Positions 10,837 through 56,322 of a DNA stretch of 64,000 nt are shown here, in pieces (the first letter of the stretch is position 1; every line of letters starts with the position of its first letter). Source of the stretch: an uncultured bacterium (lineage in GTDB: Bacteria; Fidelibacterota; Marinisomatia; Marinisomatales; UBA1611); the NCBI GenBank assembly GCA_943788175.1, contig CALSPG010000005.1, positions 128,001 through 192,000 on the forward strand. Reading direction: 5' to 3'. The notes below the pieces were generated by a model. It saw only the letters and a list, made by a program, of their open reading frames with translations, did not search any database and had not been told where the DNA came from. The position numbers and the translations under genes were made by a program.

Positions 10837-10892
10837 TTTTATATATTCTACTATATACTAAGTTTGTAAATAATCAAGTTAGGCAGGTTTAA

Positions 10893-11348
10893 ATGTTATC
10901 TATTGGATCAAGTGCTCCTGAGTTTCAACTTAATGATCAGGATGGGAATACAGTAAATATTAAAGATTTTGAGGGTCAAAAAGTTTTACTTTGGTTCTAT
11001 CCAAAAGCAAGTACACCTGGCTGAACTATCCAAGGTCAAGGGCTCCGGGATGAGTTCAAAAATTTTGAAAAAAATAATACAGTAGTGCTTGGAATGAGCG
11101 CTGATTCAATAAAAGCTCAAAAGAATTTTTGTACCAAACAAGAGTTCCCATTTCAATTATTATCTGATCCTGAGAAAGAAACAATAAAATCATATGGAGC
11201 AATAGGTTTAAAGAAGATGTATGGTAGAGAATATGAAGGAATTCTTAGAATAGCTTATTTGATTGATGAAAATAGTAAAATAGAAAAAGTTTATGAAAAA
11301 GTTAGTCCAAAGACTCATGCTGGTGAGGTTTTAAAAGACTTAGCTTGA
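10893..11348 (+). CDS. bcp: Peroxiredoxin BCP/PrxQ, probable selenoprotein (Sec44 = TGA 11022-11024), 151 aa
   Basis: MLSIGSSAPEFQLNDQDG...WFYPKASTPG[TGA]TIQGQGLRD continues in frame into ORF 11085-11348; TGA sits at the peroxidatic Cys of PxxxTPGC. Confidence 0.9.
11022..11058 (+). promoter_or_regulatory. Candidate bacterial SECIS hairpin
   Basis: TGAACT-ATCC ... GGAT-G-AGTTCA can pair, enclosing a G-rich apical region (aaggtcaagggctccg). Confidence 0.6.
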
Positions 11349-11351
11349 TTG

Positions 11352-12272
11352 CTATTGATTATTAATTATTAGATAGTTGTCTTGGAATGACATGAACCCT
11401 TCTTCTAAATAACCACTCATTAGAGAGTGCCCTTTAATCCAAAGCTCATTTTTTTTGACTACAAAATCTGTAAGATGGATTGGATTATTTTTAACTGCTA
11501 ACACAGCGCTATTTTCTTTACAAAGTGCGATATCGTTTACTTTAAAGTTTTCAATGTTTTCCCAGTCTTTACGCAATCGATAGCCTCGTTTTTGATCTAT
11601 CTCATCATAAGTAAATGTGTAATGAGGATCTTTTTTTGTAAATGGGCACATAGTATAAATGGGTAAAATCGCACAAATAACGACCCAAAAAGTCGAGTTT
11701 GCTTTCAAGTCGCAATAAAAATTCATGCCGGATCTTAGGTCCAGAGCTTTTTGTATACTATTTGCATTAACAAGTAAGCTGTAGTGTGATAAAAAAATAC
11801 TTTTATCCTCTGTTATCATAATGACGGCGGTTTCATCTAATAAAGCTTTGTATTTCGGAATAAAAACCGGGGAGTATGACAATATGGCTTTTTTAAAATC
11901 AATTCCAAATTTTATTCTTTTTGCGCCTAATTTTTTATTTATTTTGACATTACTTTTTTCAAGAAAAATACCTTTTGCTCCCATGTGCCATAGACCATAA
12001 AGTAATAATAATGACTGCAAAGATGAATTTTCTTCAATTATAACATTATCTTTTGGATTAATACCTTGCTCAGTTAGCCAATTAGCCATCTTTTGAATGA
12101 GTTGATAGAATTCAATATTTTTAAGATTATAATCACTAAAAATACTTTTTTCTCCAAATTTAATTATTTGACCCTCAATTATTGCTTGGGTGCCAGGGTA
12201 GGGGATCATGTATTCTATTGGCTCTATATTGCCAATAGTTTGCGCTTTGTATAATTGAGTTTCTAAATTCAT
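11352..12272 (-). CDS. Degenerate AMP-binding (acyl-CoA synthetase-like) protein
   Basis: ANWLTEQGINPKDNV, LSHYSLLVNA, ELWIKGHSLMSGYL remnants; P-loop missing. Confidence 0.55.
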   Translation of the reverse strand: MNLETQLYKAQTIGNIEPIEYMIPYPGTQAIIEGQIIKFGEKSIFSDYNLKNIEFYQLIQKMANWLTEQGINPKDNVIIEENSSLQSLLLLYGLWHMGAKGIFLEKSNVKINKKLGAKRIKFGIDFKKAILSYSPVFIPKYKALLDETAVIMITEDKSIFLSHYSLLVNANSIQKALDLRSGMNFYCDLKANSTFWVVICAILPIYTMCPFTKKDPHYTFTYDEIDQKRGYRLRKDWENIENFKVNDIALCKENSAVLAVKNNPIHLTDFVVKKNELWIKGHSLMSGYLEEGFMSFQDNYLIINNQ

Positions 12273-12941: not shown

Positions 12942-14087
12942 CTAAGAATTCCAAGAATAGATATATTTTTCATCTTCGATTTTTTGCGAATCAGTTGTTA
13001 AGTCTACTGGTTTAAAAGTATCTATCATAACAGCAAACTCTTTAGTCTCTTTTGCCCCAATAGATTCTTCGATTTTTCCTGGCTGTGGCCCGTGTGTTAA
13101 GCCCATGGGATGATAAGTTATCGATTCTGGTTCAACACCTTTCCTGCTCATGAATTTCCCGTCGACATAATATATAATTTCTTCGGAGTCTACATTACTA
13201 TGAGCGTAAGGAGCGGGTATTGAATTTTTATGGTAATCATATAACCTAGGCACAAAAGAACAAACGACGAAGCCTTTAGATTGAAACGTTTGATGAACGG
13301 GAGGTGGTTGATGAATTTTCCCAGTAATTGGCATGAATTCTTTAATGTTTATTTTCCAAGGATAATAATATCCATCCCAGCCAATTATATCAAAAGGGTG
13401 ATTTTGATATTCATAAGATTGAAAACATTCCCCGTACTTAACATCAATTAACGTATTTTGTTCTAAAGACGGTTCATCGTGTTGAGGGGTTATAATATCT
13501 CGTTCAGTAAATGGTGAATGCTCTAATAGTTGACCGAATTTATTTCTGTAGCGTTCAGGTGTTTCAATTGGTTCTTTTGATTCAATGACTAATATTTTTA
13601 ATGGGGAATTAATTTTCATTTTCCATATCACGCCTCTTGGAATAACTACATAATCTCCATAGACTATATCAAAACTCCCAAAATTTGTTTGTAAGGTGCC
13701 TTCCCCGGCACTAATAAACAACAATTCGTCAGCATAAGCATTTTTATAAAGAGTATCCATTGACTTATCGACATGACATTTGGAAATTACTAAATCAGCA
13801 TTCAGAAATAGTGTTTTTCGAGAAAATACAGCATCTCCCTCACTTTTAATATTTGATGTTTTTAAATGATAATGTTTATTTATTTTTTCGATTACATCAA
13901 TTTCATTTTTGGTTTTAGAACCTAAATTTTTTACTGCAGTTGGTGGGTTTATATGATATACATTTGAGTACATGTGGCTAAAACCATTTCTGCTAATTAG
14001 CTCTTCCCAAAAAAGATTTTTATTTTCATCTCTAAATTCAGTGTGTTTTTTTTGTGGTATTTCTCCTCTTTTTTGATAGAATGGCAT
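12942..14087 (-). CDS. hmgA: Homogentisate 1,2-dioxygenase
   Basis: HQPPPVHQTF, PYAHSNVDSEE, HGPQPG. Confidence 0.93.
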   Translation of the reverse strand: MPFYQKRGEIPQKKHTEFRDENKNLFWEELISRNGFSHMYSNVYHINPPTAVKNLGSKTKNEIDVIEKINKHYHLKTSNIKSEGDAVFSRKTLFLNADLVISKCHVDKSMDTLYKNAYADELLFISAGEGTLQTNFGSFDIVYGDYVVIPRGVIWKMKINSPLKILVIESKEPIETPERYRNKFGQLLEHSPFTERDIITPQHDEPSLEQNTLIDVKYGECFQSYEYQNHPFDIIGWDGYYYPWKINIKEFMPITGKIHQPPPVHQTFQSKGFVVCSFVPRLYDYHKNSIPAPYAHSNVDSEEIIYYVDGKFMSRKGVEPESITYHPMGLTHGPQPGKIEESIGAKETKEFAVMIDTFKPVDLTTDSQKIEDEKYIYSWNS

Positions 14088-14093
14088 AATTAA

Positions 14094-15059
14094 TTATATA
14101 ATTTTATTTTCTAAAATTCCTAGTTTTTCAATTTCCATTGTAACAGTGTCACCTTTTTTTATCCAACCACCTGTATTCTCAGGTCGTAATTCTAGGATGC
14201 ATCCAGTACCAACCGTTCCAGAACCGATGTATTCTCCAGGGACTACTTTTGTGTTCATACTTGCACGCTCAATCATATCACCAAAGGAGTGATAAAGATC
14301 ATTTGTGTTTCCATCTGAAATAAGTTTACCGTTTACATGGCAGGTCATTCTTAAATGCAATTTTCCTTTTTCATCCCAATCATTTTCAATTTCATCTGGA
14401 GTAACCATATAAGGACCAAAACTAGATGCAAAGTCTTTCCCTTTTGCAGGGCCGAGACTCATAGGCATTTCTTCTCTTTGGAGATTTCTAGAAGACCAGT
14501 CATTTAAAATTGTATAACCAGCGATGACACTTTTTGCATTTTCAGATTTAATATTAGAACCACCATTACCTATAACAATTGCAAATTCTAACTCATAATC
14601 AAGTTCAGTCGTCGCAAGTGGATATGGAATATCTTGATTATGTCCAAAACAACAGTTCGGGTTTGAAAAATAAAATATAGCTAGTTTATACCAATCTGGA
14701 TTCATTTCTAAGCCTCTGAGTTTTCTTGCAGCACGAACATGTTGCTCAAACGCATAAAAGTCTCTAAAAGCAGGCGGATTAGGAACCGGTGGTAGAATGA
14801 TTGCATCGGATTCTTTTACAGAGAATTGGCGGTGATCGAGTTGCTTTACTTTGTCCTCTAATTCTTTGAGTAATAAAAAATTCTTATCCCATTCATGGAG
14901 CGCACTTTTTAACGATCGCGGTATAGATAAAAATTTTTCATCTTTAAGTTTTTCATTGATGAATTTAGAAGAGTCATAAATATTAATTATGCTATCATCC
15001 ATCTTAAATCCAAAGATCTGTTCAGAGTCTAATTGTCTTTTATAAGTTAATAACTTCAT
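14094..15059 (-). CDS. Fumarylacetoacetate hydrolase family protein
   Basis: RDFYAFEQH, LDYELE, NDWSSR, KGKDF, GSGT; start reassigned to ATG 15059 just past the hppD stop. Confidence 0.88.
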   Translation of the reverse strand: MKLLTYKRQLDSEQIFGFKMDDSIINIYDSSKFINEKLKDEKFLSIPRSLKSALHEWDKNFLLLKELEDKVKQLDHRQFSVKESDAIILPPVPNPPAFRDFYAFEQHVRAARKLRGLEMNPDWYKLAIFYFSNPNCCFGHNQDIPYPLATTELDYELEFAIVIGNGGSNIKSENAKSVIAGYTILNDWSSRNLQREEMPMSLGPAKGKDFASSFGPYMVTPDEIENDWDEKGKLHLRMTCHVNGKLISDGNTNDLYHSFGDMIERASMNTKVVPGEYIGSGTVGTGCILELRPENTGGWIKKGDTVTMEIEKLGILENKII

Positions 15060-15063
15060 TAGG

Positions 15064-16152
15064 TTAAAGATTCCCTCGTTGGCTTTGTTGTCTTTCAATT
15101 GATTCAAATAATGCTTTAAAGTTCCCTTTACCAAAGCTGTTCGAACCTTTTCTTTGAATTATTTCATAAAATAAGGTTGGCCGGTCTTGTATCGGTTTCG
15201 TAAATATTTGTAGCATATATCCTTTTTCATCTCTGTCTACTAAAATACCTAATTCAGCTATTGCATCCAGATCTTCTTCAATATCATCTATTCTTTTTGA
15301 TAAGTCTTCATAATAAGATTTAGGTGTAGGTAGAAACTGAACTCCATTTGATTTTAATTTTTTTACAGTACTAACTATATCTTTTGTGGACATTGCGATA
15401 TGTTGAACCCCTGGGCCATTGTAAAAGTCGATGTACTCTTGGATTTGGGACTTTTTCAAACCATTTGCAGGTTCATTAATGGGCATTTTTACTATTTCAT
15501 TTTCATTTGACATTACAATAGATCTGAGTGAGCTGTATTTTGTAGAAACGTCTTTATCGTCAACAGACCAAAATCGATGCCAACCAAAAATTTTTTCATA
15601 AAATTCACAAACCTTTTTCATATCACCATCCGGTTGGTTTCCAACCACATGATCAATGTGAATGATACCAGTAGAAATATCAGTGTTTGGTGTTTGAATC
15701 TTTTCATAACCAGGTAAAAATGAGCCTTTATATTTAGACCTATCAATAAAAGTGTGTGTTGTGTCTCCGTATGTTTGGATGGTTGCAGTTACTGCTTCAC
15801 CATAACGGTCTTGAATAATTTTTGGTTTTATTACGCTTTTTGCTCCTTTACTAGTCGTTTCTCTCCACGCTTTTTCTGCATCATTTACCGAAAAAGAAAT
15901 ATCCTTTACGCCGTCACCATGTTGATCTATATGTCTACCAATATCAGTTCCTGGAATTAATGGCGAGCTTAGAACAAATTTGACCTGATTCTGTTGCATA
16001 ACATAACTGACTTTTTCACGACTTCCCGTTTCAAGTCCCGAATACGAAACAGGTTTAAATCCAAGAGCATGCTGGTAGTAATATGCAGCTTGTTTTGCAT
16101 TGCCAACATATAATTCGCAATGGTCAAAACCGCTAATTTTAAAATTTTCCAT
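15064..16152 (-). CDS. hppD: 4-hydroxyphenylpyruvate dioxygenase
   Basis: IDHVVGN, GPGVQHIA, LQIFTKP, EIIQR, FGKGNFKALFESIE. Confidence 0.96.
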   Translation of the reverse strand: MENFKISGFDHCELYVGNAKQAAYYYQHALGFKPVSYSGLETGSREKVSYVMQQNQVKFVLSSPLIPGTDIGRHIDQHGDGVKDISFSVNDAEKAWRETTSKGAKSVIKPKIIQDRYGEAVTATIQTYGDTTHTFIDRSKYKGSFLPGYEKIQTPNTDISTGIIHIDHVVGNQPDGDMKKVCEFYEKIFGWHRFWSVDDKDVSTKYSSLRSIVMSNENEIVKMPINEPANGLKKSQIQEYIDFYNGPGVQHIAMSTKDIVSTVKKLKSNGVQFLPTPKSYYEDLSKRIDDIEEDLDAIAELGILVDRDEKGYMLQIFTKPIQDRPTLFYEIIQRKGSNSFGKGNFKALFESIERQQSQRGNL

Positions 16153-16160
16153 ATATTATT

Positions 16161-17249
16161 TTAGTGGATGATAGCTTTTAAAGCATTAAGTAAAGTTATG
16201 TTTTCTTCAGGTGTTCCGATAGATATTCTAATACAGTTTTGCCATCCAAATGCGGACAGTTTTCGAACAATAATACCTTTATTTAAAAGTTTAGTTACGA
16301 TTACATCAGCATCATTGCTATTATTCCATATTGTAGTGATAAAATTTGTATAGCTAACAATGAATTTAATATCTAAGGATTTGAACTCGTTTAATAAATA
16401 CTCTCTTCCTTTTTGATTCTCGCGAACAGTTTTTTCTAAAAAATCAGTGTCATCAAGTGCTGCTATCCCAGCAGCTTGAGCTGGCATAGATGGCTCAAAT
16501 GGGGCTTTTACTTTATTTAGGTTCTCTATGAGATCTTTGTGAGCCAATCCATAACCTAATCGCAAACCACCAAGTCCATATGCTTTAGAGAAGGTTCTTA
16601 AAGTAATCACATTATCATAGCGGTAGAGCATTGAATCTGGATAATCAGATTGGTGTTTAGCATATTCATAATAGGCTTCGTCAAGAATAATCAAGACTCT
16701 GTCAGGTACATGATTATAAAAAGCGTCAAAGTCAGACTTAGTAACGTATGTTCCCATTGGGTTATCAGGGTTAGCTATATATATTATCTTTGTATAATCT
16801 GTGATTTTTTTTGCCATTTCTTGAAGATCATATCTTCGCTCTTTCATTGGCACCCAAATTATTTTTCTTCCTGATGCATTTGCTAGAACACGAAAACCAA
16901 TAAAAGATCCTTCTGTCCCAATTATTTCATCCTCATCCAATAAGAACGTCCTCATTATTGTTGACATTATACCCTCAGAACCGGAACCAATAGTAACATT
17001 TTCTATCTTGACCTTAAATTTTTTTGCTAGTTTACTTCTAAGTTGATATCCAGATGCATCTGGATATCTATTCAAGTTTTTATATGTTTTTTCAATCGCC
17101 TTTATTGCGAGGGGGCTAGGTCCATGAGGGTTTTCATTCGAGGATAGTTTTATATATTTTATTCCATCGTCATTCAACTCTGCTTCTTGAATTGACTTCC
17201 CTGGTTTATACTTTTTGAGTTTTTTTATATAAGATGGTACTAATGGCAT
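16161..17249 (-). CDS. hisC: HisC-family PLP aminotransferase (probably aromatic amino acid aminotransferase in this context)
   Basis: KLSSNENP, NPDNPMG, DEAY, RTFSKAYGL; first gene of hppD operon. Confidence 0.85.
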   Translation of the reverse strand: MPLVPSYIKKLKKYKPGKSIQEAELNDDGIKYIKLSSNENPHGPSPLAIKAIEKTYKNLNRYPDASGYQLRSKLAKKFKVKIENVTIGSGSEGIMSTIMRTFLLDEDEIIGTEGSFIGFRVLANASGRKIIWVPMKERRYDLQEMAKKITDYTKIIYIANPDNPMGTYVTKSDFDAFYNHVPDRVLIILDEAYYEYAKHQSDYPDSMLYRYDNVITLRTFSKAYGLGGLRLGYGLAHKDLIENLNKVKAPFEPSMPAQAAGIAALDDTDFLEKTVRENQKGREYLLNEFKSLDIKFIVSYTNFITTIWNNSNDADVIVTKLLNKGIIVRKLSAFGWQNCIRISIGTPEENITLLNALKAIIH

Positions 17250-23055: not shown

Positions 23056-24147
23056 ATGAAAAATAAAAAACACACTCCAAATTATCGCGATTACTTACAA
23101 TTAAAATCACTACTAAAATCGCAAGAATTGGTAAGCGATAAATTAGGTAAAAAAGCTCACGATGAGATGCTTTTTATAATTACCCATCAAGTATACGAGC
23201 TCTGGTTTAAACAAATATTATATGAAATTGATTCAATTTTTGAAGTTTTCAATATTAAAAACGTTGATGAATCAAAAATTGGTACTGTTGTAAGTAGACT
23301 TCATAGAATTAATGAAATAATTCAACTGCTAATTGATCAGATAAAAATTTTAGAGACAATGACACCAATGGATTTTTTAGAATTCAGGGATATGTTAACT
23401 CCAGCTTCTGGGTTTCAAAGTGGGCAGTTTAGAATGATTGAAAATAAAATAGGCCTTCTAAAAAATGAGCGACATACATATGGAGGGAAAAATTACAAAG
23501 ATAAAATACACAAAAATGAATTTAAGGATGTTGAAAATTCAGAAAATTCGGATTCTTTATTTATTTTTGTCGAGAAATGGCTTGAGAGAACGCCTTTTTT
23601 AATATCCGAAGATTATAATTTTTGGGATCAATATAAAAAAGCTGTAAAAAAAATGATTTTAAATGATAAAAAAATTATAGAAAAAAATGGAAGCCTTTCA
23701 GAAGATGAAAAAGAAAGTCACTATAATCAATATAATTCAACAGAAAAAATGTTTAACTCTTTTTTTGATGAGTCAGTTTTTTCAAAAATGAAATCTAGTG
23801 GCCAGTTTAGATTATCATATAAGGCCACGCATGCAGCACTTTTAATTTTATTATATCGAGATCAACCGATATTACATAATCCTTATAGACTACTAAGCAA
23901 ATTAATTGATCTTGATGAACTCCTTACGACTTGGAGATATAAACATCATTTGCTAGCGACAAGAATGATAGGTAAAAAAATAGGAACTGGTGGTTCTGTA
24001 GGAGCCTCATATTTAAAAAAAGCTTTAACGAAGCACAGAGTATTTGAAGATTTAAGCAGTCTAACGACCTTTTTAATTCCACGATCTGAATTGCCGAGTT
24101 TACCTGAGGGTATTATTCGAAAGCTAAGTTTTCATTATGATTCATAA
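23056..24147 (+). CDS. kynA: Tryptophan 2,3-dioxygenase (long type)
   Basis: HDEMLFIITHQVYELWFKQ, PASGFQS, RMIGKKIGTGGS. Confidence 0.93.
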   Translation: MKNKKHTPNYRDYLQLKSLLKSQELVSDKLGKKAHDEMLFIITHQVYELWFKQILYEIDSIFEVFNIKNVDESKIGTVVSRLHRINEIIQLLIDQIKILETMTPMDFLEFRDMLTPASGFQSGQFRMIENKIGLLKNERHTYGGKNYKDKIHKNEFKDVENSENSDSLFIFVEKWLERTPFLISEDYNFWDQYKKAVKKMILNDKKIIEKNGSLSEDEKESHYNQYNSTEKMFNSFFDESVFSKMKSSGQFRLSYKATHAALLILLYRDQPILHNPYRLLSKLIDLDELLTTWRYKHHLLATRMIGKKIGTGGSVGASYLKKALTKHRVFEDLSSLTTFLIPRSELPSLPEGIIRKLSFHYDS

Positions 24148-24161
24148 TATTGATACCTTAA

Positions 24162-25903
24162 TTATAAGCTAAAGTCTTCCTCGATTAATTCCAGACCTCT
24201 TTCTATTGCGTTTTTTAGTTGTAAATCAGATTTAAACTTTATTAAATGATTTTTTAAAAATTGGACTTCGTTTCTGATAGTCTGATCTTTATAAATAATC
24301 TCATAAATAATCATACATAAAAGCCATTCTTTATCATATTTCTTATATACAATTTTTAGTATTGTTATATAATCTTCACTTGCTGATTTTTCATTTCTAA
24401 GGTTTTCAACTTTGCCATATAATTTGTTTAGGTATTCAGTGTCTTCTGTGAGATTTGATGAATGATATGAAATATCTTTTTTAGTTAGTTCTAACTTTTG
24501 ATAATTAATCCAATCAGCTGGGCCACCATAAATAGAGACTATCTTATTTCCACATGCGAGGTCATATTGGCCCCAGTCTGGTTTAAATAACACATCATTT
24601 TTTAGTCTAACAGAGGCATTATTCAATGTTATTAAAATTGGTTTACCTTCGAATTTGATTATACTATTTATAGTACCTGAAACAATTAAACCATTGTAAA
24701 ATTTTATTGTTGAATGCTTTGCAGGTTCAACGTTAATCGTTTTTAATTCTTCATCGCTTAACTCGTATAGTGATTTATTCAGAGGGATTATATGCCCAAG
24801 TGCAGCGCCATAACCTTCAGGTGGGTTACCGTTCCGTGACCATCTATTTCAGCATTTTTGTAACATAGCTGAGTCTTTCCAAGGTAGTTTAAATATGACG
24901 GTTGATTCTTTTTATCATATATACATTTATTTAAAACGCCTGACACTTGTAACCCCGAATCAAAAACTGTGGTTGTTGTATTCTCTGATAAAATAGCTTT
25001 TTCTACAGCGGATTTACCACCAACAACATAGGCCATTGTTCTACTATAATCGGTTAATATATTTTTCAAATTTTTAAAGCTTTCTGTTACAAAAAGTTGT
25101 GGTTGCGGTTTGGTAATATTATAGTCCTGTTTTATACAGTCTAAGCTAATTGGTATTTTTTTTACATTATTTTTTAGACAAGAAACGCTTTCAGAGACTG
25201 ATGACAATAGGCCTGCTCCATAAATTTTAGGGTTAGACAAGTCACCAACTAAACCATACTCAATTGTCCACCAGTTCATTCTTGCGAGTTCGCTAGCTTC
25301 ACTTAGCCATTCTTTCTTGCTAGATATCATTTCAAATTCGTGTTCAATTTCTTTTAAAATTTTAGAATTTACATTTGGGTTTTCTTTTGATATTGAAAGA
25401 TTTCTAACTATTTCATATTGTTTTGCATCACTTTTTGATTCAATCGCTTTCTTTGCTATCTCTCCATATGAGCATAAATATTCAGCATAGTCTTCATTTG
25501 CAATTATTGGAGCGTGCCCGGCTGCTTCATGTATAATATCTGGAGCAGGAGTGTATGTAATATGATTACTTGTTCTAATATCAACAGCAATTGGAAGAAC
25601 TTTGCGTGCCAAAAACTCCATGAAAATAATTGGTGGTATAAACCCTTTCACGCTTGCGGCTCCCCAACCAAACTCATCGAGTTTTCTATCCATGTCATCA
25701 ATTTTCGGAATATGCTCTGTTGGAATCCCAACTTTTTTTATTCCTTCGATATATGATTTCTGAGCATTTTTTTTAAAAAAAGGAATGGATATTTTCATAA
25801 CGTATCGCCAAACGGCTTGGTCAATATGTGAGTATAATGAGTAATCCTGTGTGGAAGTATACTCTAATAATCGTTGTGGAAGACTTGTTCGTGCTTTACT
25901 CAT
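24162..25903 (-). CDS. phhA: Phenylalanine 4-hydroxylase, long form (~580 aa); one base missing near 24820
   Basis: PDIIHEAAGHAP, WWTIEYGL, YGAGLLSS; adding one C in CACC gives HPEGYG and joins 24788-25903 to 24162-24626. Confidence 0.88.
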
Positions 25904-39257: not shown

Positions 39258-42200
39258 ATGATGAATATTAAAAGAAATAATTTTTGGTCAGCGGCCAAAA
39301 CAATTGCTGCGACTTTGTTCTTTGGGCTTTCAATTGGTAATGCTCAGGGCGTTTTTATTACAGAGATTACTGATCCAAACACCAATAGTCTTGCAACAAA
39401 TGGAGGAAGATTTGTTGAGCTATACAATAACACTGATGCCGATATAGATCTCACTGGTTGGGCTCTCCGTAGATGGACAAACGAACAAATAGATCCTCAG
39501 CCATCTGACCAGGTCCTTTCAGGTTCTATTTCCGCTGGTGGTTTTTATATAATCACTAATATTGCAGAAGGTTTTGAAAGTATTTATGGTTTTGCAGCTG
39601 ATTTAGCAATTGGTTCTGGCGGTCCTGCTGACAGTAATGGCGATGATGACATAGCTCTAATCAATTTAGCTGGAGATGTTGTTGATTTTTATGGTGAAGT
39701 AAATACTAGCTCGGGGACTGATAACACAGGAACTGTTTGGGAATTTGAAGATGGCAGAGCTGAAAGATTAGCGTCAGTTAGTAGCGCTAATGCACTAGGA
39801 ATATCATCTGAATGGAATATTGATAATGATTCTGGCGGTGGAGATGGAGTCCAAGATGTTGACAATATGGATCCTGGTTCATGGATCGGGGAGCCTGTTG
39901 AAGGTAACAGCCCTCCAGTAGTAAATCTTGGGGGTGATAAATATATTTCTGCGAACGATAACGGTGATATAGTAGTAGTGCTTGATGGCTCTGCTGCGTA
40001 TGATGTAGACAATGATGAATTGTCTTATGTTTGGTCTAAAATCCCTTCTTTAGAAGGGGTGGGCGATCTTCCAGTCGTTGAATTAACTTATCCGAATGGG
40101 ACGACAGGTGTTTTCAAATTTCAATTAGCAGTGAGTGACGGGGAGTACACTGTTAAAGACACGATAGTTTTTAACCTTTTAAATTCTTATGAAGTAAAAT
40201 TCATTGTTGATATGTCAGAAGAAACCATTGATGATGATGGTGTTAAGATTACTGGCTTAGGAGATGATTCAGTACCTATGATTGATGAAAATTCTGATGG
40301 GGTTTATTCAGCGATTGTAGATTTATTTGAAGGCGATTATACCTACAACTTTAGAAATGGTTGGAGTTATGAATCTGGTGATAATCTAGGTAATTGTGCT
40401 GGCGGCCAATATGGCAATGATCGAGGTGTTTTTGTAGACCAAGATATGGTATTAGCTTCAGTATGCTGGGAATCATGCGGCCCGTGTTTTCAAGAGCCAG
40501 AAGTTCCTAGCGCAGTTACATTTATACTTGCAGATGGCGCGGATAACACGCTACCTGAAAATCAAGATTATATTACAGAGAGTGTAAAGCTTACTAGAGG
40601 CGCGAGCGGTGCTCTTTTTAACATCGCTATTGAATCCGAATATGAGCAAGGCGTTTCTCCTGAAGGAACAGTTTGGGCCATAGGTTTAACATCTGATAAT
40701 GCATTGGATAATTTTGCTTCCTATTCTAATCTGCACGATGCTGTGAATGGCGCACTTAATGGATTCTCTGAGATTGAAGGTAAAACATTTTCAATGCATG
40801 TTGCTGGCACAGACAAATATTTTGATGTCACTTTTAATTCTTGGACAAATGGCGGAAGTGGCCAAGGTGGTCCTGCAACTCGTGGCTTTAGCTATACTAG
40901 AGTTGCTGTTGAAAATAATGAGTCAGAAGGACCAAGTTTCTCGAATTATACACTCATGGTAAAAGATGCAGAGTCTTATGATGCAGAAGTAGAAGCGACA
41001 TTACCGCCATTAAACGTTGACGGGCAAGGTGTTGTAATCGAAGTTGATTTTGATACATCTGGAGATAATGTTGGTCCTTATGTTGGTGCGTTAGGTCTGT
41101 TTTGGGATGCCAACTTTAGTGGGCAACTCGATGAAGGTGATATGAACATAGCTGATGAATTATTTAGCGATGAAGAGGGAGAGGACGAAGCCACTCCAAA
41201 TAGGGAACATGATGATGAAGATGGACCTGCTGTAATTATGTTAACAGATAACAGCCCAATGGATGAAAGCGATCAGAATGGAAAAGCCGTAGTCCGTTTA
41301 AAGGGTTTAGATTTTATGGCTTTGCAAGGGGCTACTTTCTTTTTTGCTGAGCTTAATAAAGATGGTGAATTAACAGGGACAACGTTCAAAGTTGAACCGT
41401 TCAGTAGTTCGAGTACAATTTTCACTGGTGTAGCTTCAAGAAATGTTGATAATACGAACCAGCCAATCCAGGGCGTATTTGTTTCTGTTGAGAAAGTTGA
41501 TGTGGGTTTTGATGACATGATTAACACAGATTCTGAACCAATGGCTGTCGCTATGGGACTAACGGGCTCTAATGGTGTTTATAGTTTAGGTGCTTCTTCA
41601 TTAATGGCGGGTGATACTGCAGTTGTAGGAGCAGAAACCGTTCTGGATGAAAGATTGATTGTCCTAATGGAAGACCAAGAAGGTGTTGTTGGGCACAGAG
41701 CAGAGTTTATTACAGTTGAGGGTGAAAATCATATGGCTGATATTTCTGTTATTAGATCAAATACGTTAGTTCAAGGCTATGTAACAGATTCTCAAAGCAT
41801 GTCTTTTAATGGTAGCCTTCACGTTCAATTTTTCTTAGGGTCTGACGAAAATCCAATCATGATTGAAGACCATGTTGAAATTGATGAAGGTGGCATGTTT
41901 ACTTTTTGGGCAATGAATGGTGCAGAAGTTGAACTGTCTTATTATGGGATGAGTGGAAATATTAATAGAAACTTCCTCATAGAGGCTGATGACACTATGT
42001 TTAGCGATACAATTGACGCGTATGTTTTTAATTATACTCTTGATTTGACTCCGCCAAGTGAAGCAGTGATAAAAGGTAGAGCCTTTTGGGTTTCCTTAGA
42101 TTCTAGTGGGACCAACATGGACTACACTGACATCCCATTGCCTGGCATGGAGATTAAAATATATAATGAAAATGATATGCTTTTTGCGACAACAGATGCA

Positions 42201-43826
42201 ATGGGTGAGTACAGCATAAATGTTCCGTCTAATCCAACGGCAGGTGTTATTTATTTTGTTAAAACAATAACGATTTTACCTGAGTTAAGAAATGATGCAA
42301 TTGTTGAAGTTACGACATACACTGGTACTCAATCTGAAGTTGACTTTGAATTTTTTCCATATGTCGATGAATATGTGATTTCAGGTCAAATTAAAGATGA
42401 TATTGGGCAGGGCGTTTCTGATGCGGAAGTGAATGTTAGTTCTGTAGATAGCCCAGGTGAAGGTGATCGTGAACACGAGAATGGATGGTATAATTATACC
42501 TACACTGATGCGCAGGGTTATTACGCTATAACCGTTCCAGCTGGTATATATGACATGGATGTTATTGCAGATGGTTTTCTAACAGCAATGCAATCCGGGG
42601 TAGATGCTACTTCAGATATAGTCGTTGATTTTAATTTAACGCCTGTTGGTGATTTTACTGGTTCAGTGCAGGGGGTTGTCTTTTTTCTAGGTGATTATGC
42701 ATCGGAAGATCCAGCCTATATTGAAATATCTAGCGACAGTTACGAAGTGTCAACTTATGCAGATCAAGATGGGTTTTACTCTGTCCAGTTAATTGATGGT
42801 GTTTATGATATTTATGTAAATGCAATGGGGTATGATTCCTATTGGAAACCTGAAGCGTTTGAAATTATGGGTAACACAGTTGTTTTTGATGTGGAGCTAT
42901 TTGCATATGGTTATGCGAATGCGCCTCACATGGTCGACCTATATGATATTCCAAATGATCAAGGCTTACAAATGCGAGCAGTTTGGGATGCGGGAATGCC
43001 AGGTGATTATAATTTTTTCACACAGTTTTCTATTTGGAGAAAAGTAAATAATGCTCCAATTGAACTTTGGGATTACATTGAAACTGTCCCTTGGCATGGA
43101 ATGGATCCATATGCAGCGGTAGTACCGACATTAGGAGATTCGTCTATGCATGGGGTGCATACAAGCACATTTATGGTCACGGCACATACTTCAGATGTAG
43201 GTTCTTGGTTTGACTCTGAACCAATAAGTGGACATTCTATCGATAATCTTCATCCTGGTACTCCAATGGACCTGTCATTTTCCTCAAGTCAAAGTGGAGT
43301 ATCTTTAAGTTGGTCTTCCTCTACAGATGAAGATTTCAGTTATTTCAATATCTATAGACAGGATTTACTTAGTATTGAGTCAGCAGTTGTCTTCACTTCA
43401 ATTGATTCCTTCTATACAGATCTTGAAGTAAGCAGTGTTGGTTCCTATGAATACTGGGTGACAGCTGTCGATCTTTCTGGGTTAGAATCTGAAGCTTCAA
43501 GTTTTGTGTCAGCCGTTCTTTCTGCTGGTGAAGAGATGGGCATGCCTGTAAACTTCGCATTGAAGCAGAACTATCCTAATCCTTTTAACCCCTCTACGCA
43601 GATACAATACGCGTTACCAAGTGAGTCTAAAGTTTTAATCTCTATTTATGACTTAACAGGCCGTAAGGTAAAAACACTTGTGAATGAAGTTCAAAGCGCA
43701 GGGCATAAATCTGTAATGTGGAATGCAACAAATGAGATTGGTAGGCCTGTAAGTGCAGGAATGTATATCTACTCAATACAAGCAGGAAACTTTATACAGA
43801 ATCGTAAGATGGTATTGATGAAGTAA
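39258..43826 (+). CDS. Giant acidic secreted protein 1: lamin-tail domain, PKD-like, Ig/CBM-like, one NQD-repeat domain, carboxypeptidase-regulatory repeats, FN3-like, FlgD/T9SS-type CTD
   Basis: VFITEI..FVELYN..IDLTGW; NYPNPFNPSTQI...SAGMYIY...KMVLMK. Confidence 0.85.
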   Translation: MMNIKRNNFWSAAKTIAATLFFGLSIGNAQGVFITEITDPNTNSLATNGGRFVELYNNTDADIDLTGWALRRWTNEQIDPQPSDQVLSGSISAGGFYIITNIAEGFESIYGFAADLAIGSGGPADSNGDDDIALINLAGDVVDFYGEVNTSSGTDNTGTVWEFEDGRAERLASVSSANALGISSEWNIDNDSGGGDGVQDVDNMDPGSWIGEPVEGNSPPVVNLGGDKYISANDNGDIVVVLDGSAAYDVDNDELSYVWSKIPSLEGVGDLPVVELTYPNGTTGVFKFQLAVSDGEYTVKDTIVFNLLNSYEVKFIVDMSEETIDDDGVKITGLGDDSVPMIDENSDGVYSAIVDLFEGDYTYNFRNGWSYESGDNLGNCAGGQYGNDRGVFVDQDMVLASVCWESCGPCFQEPEVPSAVTFILADGADNTLPENQDYITESVKLTRGASGALFNIAIESEYEQGVSPEGTVWAIGLTSDNALDNFASYSNLHDAVNGALNGFSEIEGKTFSMHVAGTDKYFDVTFNSWTNGGSGQGGPATRGFSYTRVAVENNESEGPSFSNYTLMVKDAESYDAEVEATLPPLNVDGQGVVIEVDFDTSGDNVGPYVGALGLFWDANFSGQLDEGDMNIADELFSDEEGEDEATPNREHDDEDGPAVIMLTDNSPMDESDQNGKAVVRLKGLDFMALQGATFFFAELNKDGELTGTTFKVEPFSSSSTIFTGVASRNVDNTNQPIQGVFVSVEKVDVGFDDMINTDSEPMAVAMGLTGSNGVYSLGASSLMAGDTAVVGAETVLDERLIVLMEDQEGVVGHRAEFITVEGENHMADISVIRSNTLVQGYVTDSQSMSFNGSLHVQFFLGSDENPIMIEDHVEIDEGGMFTFWAMNGAEVELSYYGMSGNINRNFLIEADDTMFSDTIDAYVFNYTLDLTPPSEAVIKGRAFWVSLDSSGTNMDYTDIPLPGMEIKIYNENDMLFATTDAMGEYSINVPSNPTAGVIYFVKTITILPELRNDAIVEVTTYTGTQSEVDFEFFPYVDEYVISGQIKDDIGQGVSDAEVNVSSVDSPGEGDREHENGWYNYTYTDAQGYYAITVPAGIYDMDVIADGFLTAMQSGVDATSDIVVDFNLTPVGDFTGSVQGVVFFLGDYASEDPAYIEISSDSYEVSTYADQDGFYSVQLIDGVYDIYVNAMGYDSYWKPEAFEIMGNTVVFDVELFAYGYANAPHMVDLYDIPNDQGLQMRAVWDAGMPGDYNFFTQFSIWRKVNNAPIELWDYIETVPWHGMDPYAAVVPTLGDSSMHGVHTSTFMVTAHTSDVGSWFDSEPISGHSIDNLHPGTPMDLSFSSSQSGVSLSWSSSTDEDFSYFNIYRQDLLSIESAVVFTSIDSFYTDLEVSSVGSYEYWVTAVDLSGLESEASSFVSAVLSAGEEMGMPVNFALKQNYPNPFNPSTQIQYALPSESKVLISIYDLTGRKVKTLVNEVQSAGHKSVMWNATNEIGRPVSAGMYIYSIQAGNFIQNRKMVLMK

Positions 43827-43917: not shown

Positions 43918-44415
43918 ATGATTAAAATTGTAAAAGTACTACTAGCCTCTATGCTGTTTGTTTTATCAACAAAGGTATATGCTCATTGCCAAGTCCCATG
44001 TGGTATTTATGGAGATGCCGTCCGAATCGTACAGATAGAAGAAGATATTACCACTGTACGCAAAGCGATGAATATGATTAATGACCTTGCAGGAAAGTCC
44101 GATGCACAATCATTAAACCAAATCTCTAGGTGGGTTAGAACAAAAGAAGACCATGCTCAAAAAGTTCAAGAGACCGTATTGAATTATTTCTTAGCTCAAC
44201 GAGTAAAAGCAAAAGAAAAAGGGACGAAAGAAAGACAGAAATACGTTGACCAAACGCTCACGCTTCACCAACTCGTTGTCGCTATGATGAAGTGCAAGCA
44301 GACGGTAGAGCAGCGCAATTGTAGTAACGCTTATGAGCTGCTTGATAAGTTCACAAATATATATTTTGATCAGCACGGGATTGACCATTTGAAAAAGCTA
44401 AGAAAAGAAAAATAA
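43918..44415 (+). CDS. sodN: Nickel superoxide dismutase with signal peptide
   Basis: Ni-hook HCQVPCGIY directly after VYA; KEDHAQKVQ, MKCKQ. Confidence 0.9.
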   Translation: MIKIVKVLLASMLFVLSTKVYAHCQVPCGIYGDAVRIVQIEEDITTVRKAMNMINDLAGKSDAQSLNQISRWVRTKEDHAQKVQETVLNYFLAQRVKAKEKGTKERQKYVDQTLTLHQLVVAMMKCKQTVEQRNCSNAYELLDKFTNIYFDQHGIDHLKKLRKEK

Positions 44416-50600: not shown

Positions 50601-53600
50601 ATTGGTTCTCTTGCGGGATCTATTGATGATCAAACAGGGTTCCAGATGTTTGATGATGATGGAGACCATGTATATGAAGTAACATTAAACCTTGATCGTA
50701 ATTCATTTTATAATTACAAATTTCGAATTGGTTTGACAGATGGGAATTGGCAAGGAAACTGGGAAGGTATACCTCAAGATTGTGGATATGGCGAATGGTT
50801 CGATCGTTCTTTGAATACTTCTAGCGCTGGCAGTCAAATAGTTGGGCCATACTGTTTCAGTAGTTGCGACAATTGTGAAGTGCCGAATATGTCTCTCAGC
50901 TTTGATGGGATGGATGATTATGTGAGCTCAAATTCCAAATAGTGAACTTTATGATTTTACAAATGACTTTTCAGTAGGGGTTCATTTTAAACCTGCCTCT
51001 AATTTTAATGGTGGTTGGTTATTCTCAACAAGGTTATGATGGGCAAGGACAAATGAATCGGATATGGAGCGTATATGCCTATAATGACCGGAATGATTAT
51101 TATCGTTGAATTTGTTACTTCTGATGGATTTCACCAATTTGATGTAGATGCAAATTTTTCACGCAATAGCTGGAATTTGATCATGATGACCTATGATGGA
51201 AGTTACGTAAAGTTTTATGATGAAAATTCATTGTTACATTCAGAACCTATTTCTGCTGAGGTATATAACAGTGATTATGATTTATCAATTGAGTTTCTTA
51301 CCACATGATGATTTGAGTACATATGGAGGTTTTTTTGGAGGTAATATTGATAATTTGAATCTCTGGAATAGAACCTTAATCTTAGATGAAATAATAGATA
51401 ATGACTTCAATTCATTAAGTGGTAATCAAAATGGATTAGTTGGTTTTTGGGATTTTAATGATGGTGAAGGTTCCACATTGACTGATTACAGTGGAAACGG
51501 AAATCATGGCACTATTTACGGTGCCACTTGGACTGATGATTTTCCAATACCACCACATGCAGGGCCTGAATGGTTTGTAGATGAAGATGGGTCAGATGAT
51601 AATAATGGGTCCTATGATTATCCATTTTCTACAATTCAGCATGCGATTAATTCTGCTAATGATGGAGATTCTATTTTTGTTCGTTCAGGAACGTATTATG
51701 AAAACATTAACTTTTATGGAAAAGAAGTAAAAGTTTTCGGTTTAAGCGGGCCAGAAGAAACAATCATTGATGGACAAGCTATGAACAGTGCGGTGGTTGC
51801 TTTCAGGGATTTTGATTATTCAGATGCAGGTATATATGGTTTTACAATTCAAAATGCTGAGTATGGAGTGATGGTATTAAATGGTGGTAGTCCGGAGATT
51901 AAATGGTGTATTGTAAGGGATATTACCTTAGGTGGTGATGGTGGTTTTTACTTAGCAGGAGATGGGATTGGTTCCTCACCGACAGTATCAGAATGTCTGA
52001 TTTATGGGAATGAAAGTAACTCTGGCGAAGGTGGTGGAATTAGAGTTGCGAGTAATAATGGAAGTTCTTCAGCTTTAATTATTAATTGTACAATCGTAGG
52101 CAATAGTCCAGAAGGTATTAGAGTGCATGGTTCTAACACAGTGGTTGATGTTGTAAATACTATCATTTACGATAATCCAACAAGCATCACAAATTTGGGA
52201 ACTATAAACATAACGAATAGTAATGTTCAAGGCGGTTTTGCTGGTGACGGTAATTTCGATGATGACCCTCAATTCTGCAATCCAGTGGCTGGTGATTATT
52301 TGCTCTCTGAGAGCTCTTCTAGTTTATTCTATGTAGAAGACAGCCTATCTGTTGGGTTTTATAATAATCCTGGATGTGAATTTGCATATACAAATTATGC
52401 TCTAAGCCTAAATGGGGATGATGACCAAATTGAACTTGACCCATCGTATTTAGATGGACTTAGTGAATTTACGTTTCAAGCTATGTTTTTTGCGAATCAA
52501 GAACAATCAGGAATTTCAAACATCATTCAGCACGATGGACCAAGCAGTGATTTCTATTTAAGATATGAAGGGAATGGTTTTAAAGCATTTCAAAAAAACA
52601 GTGATTCAGAATATGGGTTCATAAATATAGATGCTCCTAGTTCTAACGTTTGGCACCAAATTACTTTTACCTATGATGGTTCTACTTCTAGACTCTATTT
52701 AGATGGAAATGAGCAAGGTTCATTTGATTTAACTGGGACGTATGTTTCTAATGAAACAATCTACTTAGGCAATTGGGAGCAAAGGGAAGGTTTCAATGGA
52801 GCTATTGATGAGGTATCCTTATTTGATTATGCATTAACCCAAGAAGAAGTTTTAGATTATTCCAACAGAGCTTTGAGTGGTTTAGAGAATGGTGTTCTAG
52901 CTCATTTTAATTTTGATGAAGGCGACGGGAATACACTTTTAGATGTGACTGGTAATGGTAATGATGGGATTATAATAGGTGGATCATGGGTTGATGGAGC
53001 ACCACTTAATGCTCCAGAACCTCCTGAACCTGAAATAACAGCAATTAATGTTGAGATTGATAATAATAATGTAAGTTTTAGTTTCGAGGCCGATACTGCT
53101 GGGTTAGGATTTTTTGATGTGCAATGGGTTTTAGGCTCTGATACCGTAATGTCGTACCAAGGGACTAGTGCCCAGGATTTAAGGCCAGGATTGCATTATG
53201 TTCGCGCGCGGCTTATAGATCAAGGTGGAAATTTAAGAGGGGATGAAGTATTACAGAGTTTTTACATTTTAAATGGTTATGAACAATATTATTATACTGG
53301 ATTTGAAGATACTGTAGACACTGGTCTGCCAGCCGGATGGGGTTCATATTCAAATGGACAAGGGTGGTATGTATCAGACAACCCATTTTTCGAAGTATGG
53401 ACAGCAGAGCCCGGTGTTGGCAATGTTGCAATCTCAAACGATGATGCTGCAGATAACGATGGAGAAAATGATTTCAATAATGGCTCTCAAGACTTTCTTT
53501 ATTTACCGCCATTAGACTTTACTTCATTTGGTGGAGCTGTTGCTTTAGAGTTTGGAAGCTTCTTTACTGGTCATTGGAATCAAACAGCGCATGTTACTTA

Positions 53601-56322
53601 CACTACCGATGGTGGTTCTTCGTGGCAAACGCTTGCTGATATTGAACCAAGTTGGAAATGGGAAAGACAATATTTTGATTTAAGTTTTCTTCAGGGTTAT
53701 GAAAATGTTTCAATATCATTTCATAGTAATGATAATAATGATTGGGGTTCTGGTTTAATAATCGATGATGTATCTATTATCGAAAACTATACATTATCGA
53801 CATCATTCATCACTGGATATGTTTATAGTAGTAATGGAGATAACCCCTTAATAGGTGCTTCAATAATAGCGGTTGAAGAAAATAATTATTTTGATCATCA
53901 AACTATAAGCGATAGCACCGGATATTATTCTCTAGAACTTATTTCTGGAACTAACTATTATTTAAATACCAGCCTTTCAGACTATCAGGATAATGTTCAA
54001 TACGTTTCAGTATCTGATGATAGTCTTTATTTAAATATTTATTTAGATGATTTTCAAGAAGTTCAGGATGCAATAGTTGAAGGGAATGTAATTAACTGGT
54101 ACACAAACGAGAGCGTACCAAATGCTTCAGTTCTTTTTGTGTACTCTGATGACGAAATGCAGACCATAGAATTATTAACAGATGAGTCTGGGTATTTTAT
54201 GGCTCAGGTACCTAGTCAAAAAGATTATGATCTTTTTGTGTATGCTGATGGATATTGGGTGGAGCATGATGCTTTTTATCTAAATGAAAGCGAGCATCAA
54301 GTTTTAAGCGTAGGCATTGCTGAAATGTCCAGCGCATCAAGGTTATATGGAACGATAAGAGATGATGAAACAAATGAATTAATACCCTATGCAGAAGTTT
54401 ATTTGAACTGCGATCAAGCAAGTGACTGGGATCGTACAGGTCAACTAGGTACGTATAGATTATTTAATTATTACCCTGGTGATTGTGATAACGGTGTCTT
54501 GGTTGTCAATGCTCAGGGTTATGAAACGAGCTTACAATCTGTTAGCGATATTGAATTTGAAATAGGTGCTTCTATCAATAAAGACATCTCTCTTTCGCAA
54601 GGCAATAACCCTGAACCAGGAATGCTTTCTGGCACGATAATCTCAAACATAGATGACAATCAAATCCATGGAGCAATATTAAAAGCCTTTAGTATTAATA
54701 GTGGTTTACTCTATGAGACATTTACAGACAGCGGCTACTTTTCTTTTACGTTGCCCGAGTCTGAATATACCGTATCAATTAATGCAGACGGACATCAAGA
54801 AAAACTTGAAAGCATTTATGTTCACTCAGGGTCTCAACTAGACACAGTTATATATCTTGATGAAATATATTCAAACATTTTCTATGGTTTAGTTAGAGAT
54901 AATGATGGAAATCTTATAGATGGTGCGATAATAACTGCTCACTTTGAAGTGGACAATATTTCTTCGGAAATTTCAACTATTTCAAATACGGATGGTTCTT
55001 ATCAGTTAATTGTTCCTGATGGAACTTTTGATTTAGCTGTTTCTCGTACGGGGTATCAAATTTCATGGATTTATGATGTTTCCATTCTCGAAAGTAATAT
55101 TGAACAAGATTTTACGTTAGATCAAATTGGTTCATTTAATGGCGCATTAATGGGCTCAGTGTATTTCTTTGGTAACCTATCAGGTACGGCAACAATTAAT
55201 ATCTGGAATGATACTTATTTTGCTGAAGCTGTAACAGCTGAAAATGGGACTTTCTATATAGATCTCATAAATGGTACATATTCAATTTTTGCTGCAGCAA
55301 ATGGCTATACAAGCGTGGTTATTCCTGATGCAATAACAATCCAAGATAATGTAGTTAATTATGATATTCATTTTAGTCAGCCAGGCTTTGTTGAACCACC
55401 GGTAATATCATCCTTAAGTGATGTCCCGAATGATCAAGGAAGAAAGTTAGATATGTCATGGCTTCCAGGCGACCCTCAGGATTTTGAAAATTTTACCCAA
55501 TATTCTATTTGGAGAAAAATAACGAGCCTGCCTACTGGCTCACCAGAATTATGGCATTACATTGCAACAGAAGACTATGTGCAAGGTTCAGATATCTACG
55601 AAAGGTCTGTGCCAACTTTGATTGACGCAAACCCTGATACGGTTAATCAAAGTACTTTCATGGTTACTGCACATACAGAAGACCCTTTTGTCTTTTTTGA
55701 CTCCCCGCCATTTTCAGGTTTCTCAGTTGACAACCTTTTTCCAGAAGTACCTAGCAATATTAGTGTTTCGTCTTCGATGGCAGATAATTCAATGTATGAA
55801 GTTTCACTATCATGGTCTGAGGCGGGCGATGAAGATTTTGCTTTTTATAATGTTTATAGATCGGACATTAACAGTGACGAATCAGCAATGGTATTTCAAG
55901 TCGTTGAATCTACTTTTACAGATGTTGTTTCCGAGTGGGGTAATTATGAATACTGGGTAACGGCTGTAGATCATAATGGAAATGAAAGTGAGCCTTCTGA
56001 AATTGCGGGAATTCAATTGTCAGTTGAAGAAGAACTTATTCCAGATGAATTTGCATTAAGTCAGAACTATCCAAACCCATTTAATCCATCTACTCAAATA
56101 CGATATGCCTTAGCGGAAAATACAAAAGTGACTGTGACCATCTATAATATGCTGGGTAGTAGGGTTCGTACTCTTGTTAATAATTATCAAGATGCCGGAT
56201 TTAAGAATGTATTATGGAATGCAACCAATGACAACGGTGCCTCTGTATCTGCTGGTATGTATATCTATACAATCCAAGCTGGTAACTTTTATCAAGCTAA
56301 GAAAATGATTTTATTAAAATAA
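44675..56322 (+). CDS. Giant acidic secreted protein 2 (~3900 aa if frameshifts are repaired): 5 LamG, 9 NQDRI repeats, Ig/CBM-like, beta-helix, cleaved-adhesin-like, carboxypeptidase-regulatory repeats, FN3-like, CTD
   Basis: Signal peptide MNKLITK...LYS; ORFs 44618-44905, 44832-49253, 49803-50942, 51075-51308 and 51217-56322 join within LamG domains; a single CTD at the end. Confidence 0.75.
45400..49145 (+). repeat. Nine tandem ~135-aa repeats (F.K.D..DP....NQDRI...WI.R...SP.GT.W...S.HI......YFD..F..W....GGGFSY.R)
   Basis: Counted in the translation of 44832-49253. Confidence 0.9.
45843..48969 (+). repeat. Near-identical ~950-bp direct repeat (45843-~46800 and 48012-~48969, offset 2169)
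   Basis: Repeats 2-4 duplicated as 7-9, with long identical DNA stretches. Confidence 0.9.

Follow-up and report, generated by a model that had tools for sequence, protein, structure and literature searches.

The window analysed here, a 64-kb stretch of Marinimicrobia DNA, harbours at 10893-11348 a gene that, judged from its sequence, is genuine and encodes a BCP/PrxQ peroxiredoxin with a thioredoxin fold and a predicted enzymatic role; its reading frame carries an in-frame TGA at codon 44 (Table 1). Read from the sequence on the + strand, the frame opened by the ATG at 10893 runs ...KVLLWFYPKASTPG-TGA-TIQGQGLRDEF... and shows no further stop or frameshift between this TGA and the terminal one, in agreement with the first-pass annotation of this DNA, which had described a BCP frame starting at the same ATG with both halves in frame and no other stop. 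The sole Cys of the protein is C80, located 36 residues past codon 44, as had also been noted in that annotation. Translation with table 11 splits the frame into an ORF of 43 aa (10893-11024) and another of 87 aa (11085-11348).

Table 1. Features of the Sec-PrxQ locus (window coordinates)
Feature	Position	Strand	Detail or basis
Possible ribosome-binding site, AGGCAGG, purine-rich	10881..10887	+	5 nt upstream of the ATG; sequence only
Complete Sec-PrxQ (BCP) CDS	10893..11348	+	151 codons and terminal TGA stop at 11346-11348
Peroxidatic motif P37-K-A-S-T41-P-G-U44 (PxxxTxxU)	11001..11024	+	Read from the sequence
In-frame TGA, Sec codon 44	11022..11024	+	TGA/Cys-codon alternation in 80 related loci
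Candidate SECIS hairpin	11040..11057	+	Stem GGGCUC (11040-11045) / GAGUUC (11052-11057); loop CGGGAU (11046-11051)
Cys80 (TGT), candidate resolving Cys, helix alpha3	11130..11132	+	KNFCTKQ; alignment to XcPrxQ residue 84
Arg119	11247..11249	+	Invariant in the 62-row alignment A3

The PrxQ gene and its surroundings

Assignment of the gene to the BCP/PrxQ subfamily relies on profiles, on motifs and on a structural model. One AhpC-TSA domain (Pfam PF00578, E 5.5e-34) covers residues 4-132 and bridges the TGA, and the NCBIfam model for thioredoxin-dependent thiol peroxidases (BCP), NF006960, whose cut-off is 140 bits, gives the protein 167.1 bits when C is substituted for U. The TGA occupies exactly the Cys position of the P37xxxT41xxC motif, peroxiredoxins being defined by Pxxx(T/S)xxC in PMC8945050. 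Across the alignment A3 (62 rows), T41, G43 and position 44 are invariant and P37 is found in at least 90% of the rows. The invariant Arg119 is presumably the conserved active-site Arg of peroxiredoxins. The AlphaFold2 model obtained with this 62-row alignment has a mean pLDDT of 96.8 and presents a helix (42-53) which begins at the Sec site and another one (73-83) which contains C80; its top Foldseek matches are BCP/PrxQ entries with TM of 0.91-0.97, those to BCP/PrxQ entries of the PDB being of 0.86-0.97.

A scan for promoters and terminators around the gene gave nothing above chance upstream of it. On its other side, a convergent ORF of 306 aa (11352-12272, - strand) meets PrxQ tail to tail, with 3 nt between the two; its N-terminal matches to AMP-binding/MenE models are weak and far under the cut-offs. 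Further along, the window holds a cluster for the breakdown of aromatic amino acids (12942-17249, - strand, and 23056-25903), with homogentisate-dioxygenase-like, fumarylacetoacetase-family, 4-hydroxyphenylpyruvate dioxygenase and aminotransferase genes, while genes for a tryptophan 2,3-dioxygenase and an aromatic amino acid hydroxylase lie further along from these. This oxygenase chemistry adjoins the peroxide-removing PrxQ and may or may not be related to it. The hydroxylase gene (24162-25903, - strand; NCBIfam NF010657, a 580-position profile) is split: an ORF at 24788-25903 matches profile positions 3-365, and a second frame at 24162-24866 matches positions 362-576 only with one TGA read through. 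Both frames overlap at 24788-24866, beside a T5 run at 24855, an arrangement that points to a frameshift corresponding to an assembly indel, a pseudogene or a recoding. C-terminal sorting domains of the T9SS are present in two giant proteins of 1522 and 1701 aa (39258-43826 and 51217-56322), in keeping with an organism of the FCB group, and between their genes stands a match to a Ni-type superoxide dismutase (sodN, 43918-44415) that, at 54.5 bits, is below the cut-off of 90.

Codon 44 and the downstream hairpin in related loci

Species-representative genomes were scanned with an alignment of homologs, which provided 80 related loci. Codon 44 reads TGA in 49 of them, 18 have TGT and 13 have TGC, and neither TGG nor any other codon occurs there; the first-pass annotation had proposed such a TGA/Cys alternation in homologs as a check of its reading, and the alternation is present. 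At the protein level, the identity of the TGA forms to the window protein extends from 96% to as little as 45%. Two loci, L001 and L002, run parallel to the window over their full lengths (16.9 and 14.4 kb, respectively) in a collinear arrangement, at a nucleotide identity of about 93%, and both keep the TGA. According to their titles, 24 of the 49 TGA loci come from Marinimicrobia or Neomarinimicrobiota and 4 from Binataceae/'Proteobacteria', most of the others being named 'uncultured bacterium'.

In a quick maximum-likelihood tree of 81 proteins, for which column 44 was left in and the X at this position counted as a gap, the window protein is found within a starred clade of 8 members, all with Sec. 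The Sec/Cys state changes at least six times on this tree, three of these changes being forced by starred branches. A locus titled Gammaproteobacteria (L005) and one titled SAR202, Chloroflexota (L057) nest inside Marinimicrobia clades of the tree, which suggests mis-binned contigs or gene transfer.

Both halves of the PrxQ gene are under strong purifying selection. Compared with L003, pN/pS amounts to 0.058/0.608 for codons 1-43 and to 0.072/0.589 for codons 45-151, and seven further comparisons gave similar values, with a ratio of about 0.1 for the part downstream of the TGA.

According to PMC9312934, the bacterial SECIS is a stem-loop placed immediately 3' of the UGA and bound by SelB. The hairpin at 11040-11057 would be what such an element should look like, and we regard it as a candidate: it starts 15 nt past the UGA and gains a seventh pair in many relatives. 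Its conservation was followed in an alignment (A2) of 69 nt around the UGA for 50 TGA forms, that is, the window and the 49 loci. The RNAalifold consensus recovered five of the pairs of the hairpin. When all seven pairs are considered over the 50 rows, 85.4% of the cells are paired versus a mean of 77.8% after shuffling, none of 500 shuffles reaching 85.4%, and sliding the partner strand by 1-3 columns makes pairing fall to 10-49%. Compensatory changes replace CG by UA (8 rows, one-sided changes being absent), GC by AU (8 rows) and GU by UA (3 rows).

The stem overlies codons L51-R52-D53-E54-F55, which makes conservation of the peptide a confound, and codon usage was counted for the 44 Marinimicrobia-type Sec sequences, L047, L060, L071, L073, L077 and L079 being excluded. 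Leu51 is encoded by CTC in 38/38 cases, a codon that represents 5.4% of the Leu codons of the window; Arg52 is encoded by CGG in 34 and by CGT in 10 of the 44 sequences, CGG accounting for 3.1% of the Arg codons of the window; and Glu54 is GAG in 38/44, against 24% of Glu codons. The synonymous sites in the stem are frozen on codons that the AT-rich genome avoids, and the mean codon entropy is 0.50 for codons 50-55 versus 1.21 for those degenerate codons that are conserved in the rest of the gene (Mann-Whitney p 0.01).

Folding of single sequences gave a different picture, since the window hairpin alone (-5.9 kcal/mol, z -1.1) is indistinguishable from shuffles, a competing 41-nt fold in which the UGA takes part has, in the window, the greater stability of the two (-12.2 kcal/mol, z -2.0, 9/200 shuffles) and a 76-nt stretch folds with a z of +0.16. 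Because this type of folding is not convincing by itself, we relied on the covariation and on the freezing of the codons. Rfam recognized no SECIS family, either in the whole window at gathering thresholds or in 10850-11400 at E up to 10, and returned only a tRNA-Asn and a chance miRNA match. A clade of 11 Cys members is devoid of the hairpin (L046, for example, is at -1.3 kcal/mol). Four Cys forms nested among the Sec forms (L007, L013, L014 and L015) retain it, so its conservation could in part reflect inheritance or the LRDEF peptide.

The Binataceae-type Sec forms (n=4) carry a distinct and stronger hairpin, GGUCGCGG-GUU-CCGCGACC, located 9 nt past the UGA and reaching -15.5 kcal/mol (z -3.3) in L073. 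These loci (L071, L073, L077 and L079) are titled Binataceae, 'Proteobacteria' or delta proteobacterium, their proteins are 45-47% identical to the window protein, their codon 44 stands at locus position 10130 and their hairpin is GC-rich, with an 8-bp stem and a GUU loop. They have no Cys80; Cys104 is present in all of them and Cys91 in three of the four.

Reading of the UGA codon

The genetic code of the organism can be deduced from the rest of the window. Its long ORFs (n=42) end with TAA in 26 cases, TGA in 9 and TAG in 7, and it contains 299 TGG codons. Readthrough of TGA elsewhere in the window extends the other long ORFs only trivially, and a scan for TGA-bridged ORFs outside the annotated genes of the window left PrxQ as the only credible case, with no other selenoprotein gene. 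As TGA is used as a stop and TGG as Trp, the code is the standard one and the UGA of codon 44 is a local recoding event.

Public protein databases give another version of this residue: among the matches listed (77-97% identity), position 44 is W in 119 of 120 homologs, the exception being P0093 with C, and P0002 also presents a W in place of the terminal TGA of the window gene. Because TGG is found in none of the 80 genomic loci, we infer that gene callers applied code 4 to short contigs and thereby turned the TGA into this W, and the homologs P0002-P0121 with W at the catalytic position likely reflect a systematic mis-annotation of the selenoprotein by code 4 calling. The first-pass annotation had predicted that standard gene callers would truncate the protein; this holds for table 11, which does split the frame, but the public sets are mostly mistranslated with W rather than truncated. 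The error is frequent and correctable: an abundant marine antioxidant gene is either split (table 11) or given a meaningless catalytic Trp (code 4).

The machinery for Sec insertion was searched for in the window and around the related loci, which represent a small part of any genome. ARAGORN detected no tRNA-Sec among the 21 tRNAs of the window and the 80 loci. Neither Pfam nor NCBIfam models detected selA, selB or selD among the ORFs of at least 100 aa in the window, these 64 kb being a small part of the genome. The same genes were absent from 105 of the 187 cluster representatives of ORFs flanking the loci, chosen for a SelD- or SelA-like length (290-385 or 420-500 aa), and no SelB-like ORF was found with a translational-GTPase P-loop motif in all 580 flank ORFs; the small part of the genome covered makes both of these negative results weak. 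In Table 1 of Peng et al. 2016, three SAR406 single-cell genomes are listed as 'orphan SelD' with the Sec trait undetected, and on this listing SelD, the selenium donor enzyme, is present in the SAR406 lineage.

Several explanations other than Sec have to be weighed against these data. A pseudogene or a sequencing error, in other words a broken Cys-PrxQ, would account for the division of the frame under table 11; but the TGA cannot stem from faulty reads in this assembly, since 49/80 independent public loci share it, and the identical codon in 49 independent species-level assemblies, together with a pN/pS of about 0.1 downstream of the TGA and the lack of any further stop or frameshift, leaves this explanation with a negligible probability. 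The conservation of the TGA and the selective constraint on either side of it exclude this explanation. A genetic code that assigns an amino acid to TGA (table 4 or 25) would be in line with the W of 119/120 listed database homologs and with the one at the terminal TGA of P0002, and is nonetheless as good as discarded by the TGA codons that close 9/42 long ORFs of the window, by its 299 TGG and trivial readthrough extensions, and by the fact that TGG stands at codon 44 in none of the 80 loci. Finally, the UGA may be decoded under the standard code as something other than Sec, either as Cys through a tRNA(Sec)-like tRNA, as a near-cognate Trp or by low-level readthrough. Some bacteria are reported to insert Cys at UGA in a SelB-dependent manner, and the absence of detected Sec machinery in the window and the locus flanks (a small part of the genome), like the 'orphan SelD' status of the three SAR406 single-cell genomes in the table of Peng et al. 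2016, speaks for such a decoding. Against it, alternation strictly with Cys codons at a redox catalytic site is the classical signature of Sec, a Trp at position 44 would abolish the nucleophile, and SelD, the Se donor, occurs in these same SAR406 genomes according to that table; we consider non-Sec decoding highly improbable.

The reading of the TGA of codon 44 as selenocysteine is thus well supported by the sequence data, owing to the Sec/Cys alternation, the purifying selection, a covarying hairpin with frozen codons and the use of TGA as a normal stop elsewhere, and the same evidence bears out the first-pass proposal of a BCP/PrxQ with Sec in place of Cys. Taken as a whole, the observations are best explained by a BCP/PrxQ peroxiredoxin of Marinimicrobia (SAR406) whose peroxidatic residue is the Sec encoded by UGA codon 44, an explanation that we hold with high confidence.

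Relation to known peroxiredoxins and role of Cys80

Sec peroxiredoxins are an established family of selenoproteins, listed as 'Prx, PF00578, TxxU' in a 2026 review (PMC13188914). The family had already been catalogued by Zhang and Gladyshev (2008, PLoS Genet, PMC2398784), whose Table 2 reports 253 selenoproteins of the Prx family (pfam00578, TxxU) from 34 GOS samples, and whose supplementary sequence file contains a '#Peroxiredoxin' block with entries of the type ...WFYP(K/R)ASTPGU..., the string 'ASTPGU' occurring 53 times. Compared by eye, one of these entries equals the translated L018 and another is near-identical to L003 and about 88% identical to the window protein; the GOS family belongs to the same orthologous group as the window PrxQ and has the same predicted Sec position. 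The first-pass annotation was right in stating that Sec peroxiredoxins had been reported from marine metagenomes, but not in calling this one hidden, since the 2008 GOS selenoproteome supplement already prints the family with U at the site. The parts of the GOS paper available to us (PMC2398784) deal with reads, with no genome context, host taxon, BCP/PrxQ subfamily or discussion of a resolving Cys, whereas the window gene stands in a 64-kb Marinimicrobia context and is described here with its SECIS hairpin and Cys80 pattern. Our search of the literature on selenocysteine PrxQ led to a paper concerning a Sec-type GPx, not a Sec PrxQ, and in the open-access literature we found no paper stating a Sec-PrxQ in Marinimicrobia/SAR406/Marinisomatota, the hairpin or the Cys80 pattern. 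The Sec-PrxQ family is known since its cataloguing in 2008 and the basic picture is unchanged; a minor novelty may lie in linking the family to Marinimicrobia, in describing the hairpin and in the pattern of Cys80.

A close structural reference is the PrxQ/BCP of Xanthomonas campestris (PDB 5iiz, 5iox, 5io2, 5iph, 3gkk, 3gkm and 3gkn), which has the same fold (TM 0.86-0.92), about 33% identity and, in common with the window protein, the motifs STPGC (with U for C in the window protein) and NFC(A/T)KQ, but comes from another phylum and has Cys instead of Sec at the peroxidatic site. PrxU of Eubacterium acidaminophilum (NF040737) is likewise a bacterial Prx with Sec at the peroxidatic position and is cited as the experimental Sec-Prx in PMC13188914. 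The window protein gives only 36.8 bits with NF040737 (a 233-position profile), for a cut-off of 270, and thus belongs to another subfamily. The E. coli-type BCP (the NF006960 equivalog) has its resolving Cys five residues past the peroxidatic Cys; the window protein passes NF006960, yet has Gln49 at this place and the pair Sec44/Cys80. The CxxxxC arrangement exists in the distant Cys homologs L049, L052, L061-L066, L068, L069 and L078.

Alignment by HMMER to the X. campestris PrxQ chains places residue 44 of the window protein on residue 48 and residue 80 on residue 84, and the titles of the PDB entries mention a 'C48S mutant', a 'C84S mutant' and 'LUss' (locally unfolded disulfide). We take C84 to be the resolving Cys of the X. 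campestris enzyme. Position 80 of the 50 Sec forms is C in 36, A in 9, G in 3 and S in 1, the last one being masked (TGN in L031), and nine of the 50 are entirely free of Cys. Cys80 as the resolving Cys is not a rule of the Sec family: as it is missing in 13/50 Sec forms, the Se-S step cannot be essential to this family. The first-pass identification of C80 with the helix-alpha3 resolving Cys agrees, for the window protein, with the alignment to X. campestris residue 84 and with the position of C80 in helix 73-83, but it does not extend to the Sec forms that lack this residue.

For the window protein itself, a Se-S intermediate formed via Cys80 is plausible on the basis of these alignments. 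During translation, the hairpin 15 nt downstream would act as a SECIS and recruit SelB and Sec-tRNA(Sec), so that the UGA would be decoded without termination. U44, which lies where helix alpha2 begins and is activated by T41 and R119, would then attack the peroxide with its selenolate as expected from the family, leaving a selenenic acid at this residue. By analogy with the C48/C84 pair of XcPrxQ, local unfolding would allow Cys80 to condense with U44 into an intramolecular selenenyl-sulfide, whose U44-C80 Se-S bond would finally be reduced by thioredoxin. Relatives devoid of Cys80 would presumably be 1-Sec enzymes that are reduced directly.

The window protein may also function in this last way, with Sec inserted and Cys80 not resolving, the selenenic acid of a 1-Sec peroxiredoxin being reduced directly by thioredoxin or another thiol. 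We judge this possible but rather unlikely. Within the core clade of 60 rows, 8 of the 44 Sec forms that were scored have lost C80, through 3 changes on the tree, and 0/15 Cys forms have done so, a pattern which, with the A, G or S at position 80 of 13/50 Sec forms (nine of them Cys-free) and the A, S or T found there in several database homologs, would be expected if Sec dispensed with a resolving Cys. The difference between Sec and Cys forms is however not significant (Fisher p 0.10, phylogeny ignored; the independent-pairs test is powerless). Moreover, Cys80 is retained in the window protein and in 36/50 Sec forms, aligns exactly with XcPrxQ residue 84 and is kept by all 15 Cys forms of the core clade, which fits an ancestral atypical 2-Cys mechanism. 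The Se-S route through Cys80 remains for these reasons our preferred reading for the window protein.

The long-known metagenomic Sec-Prx family is now tied to Marinimicrobia/SAR406, a dominant uncultured lineage of the ocean, and a dependence of the peroxide defence of these cells on selenium is implied. Two linked readings go further, and we propose them jointly as a tentative view that we think somewhat more apt to fail than to hold: SAR406 bacteria would be regular Sec decoders with a minimal SECIS of their own, and Sec would make the resolving Cys dispensable. The SECIS type may combine a stem of 6-7 bp and the hexaloop CGGGAU, placed 15 nt past the UGA, and the dispensability may be reflected in the loss of Cys80, at least three times in Sec lineages and never in Cys lineages of the same clade, leading to a Cys-free 1-Sec PrxQ. 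The Sec and Cys variants, with Cys80 present or absent, form a comparative set for understanding why Sec replaces Cys, and if the joint reading is true, the losses of Cys80 would represent an experiment of nature on the benefit that a peroxiredoxin draws from Sec.
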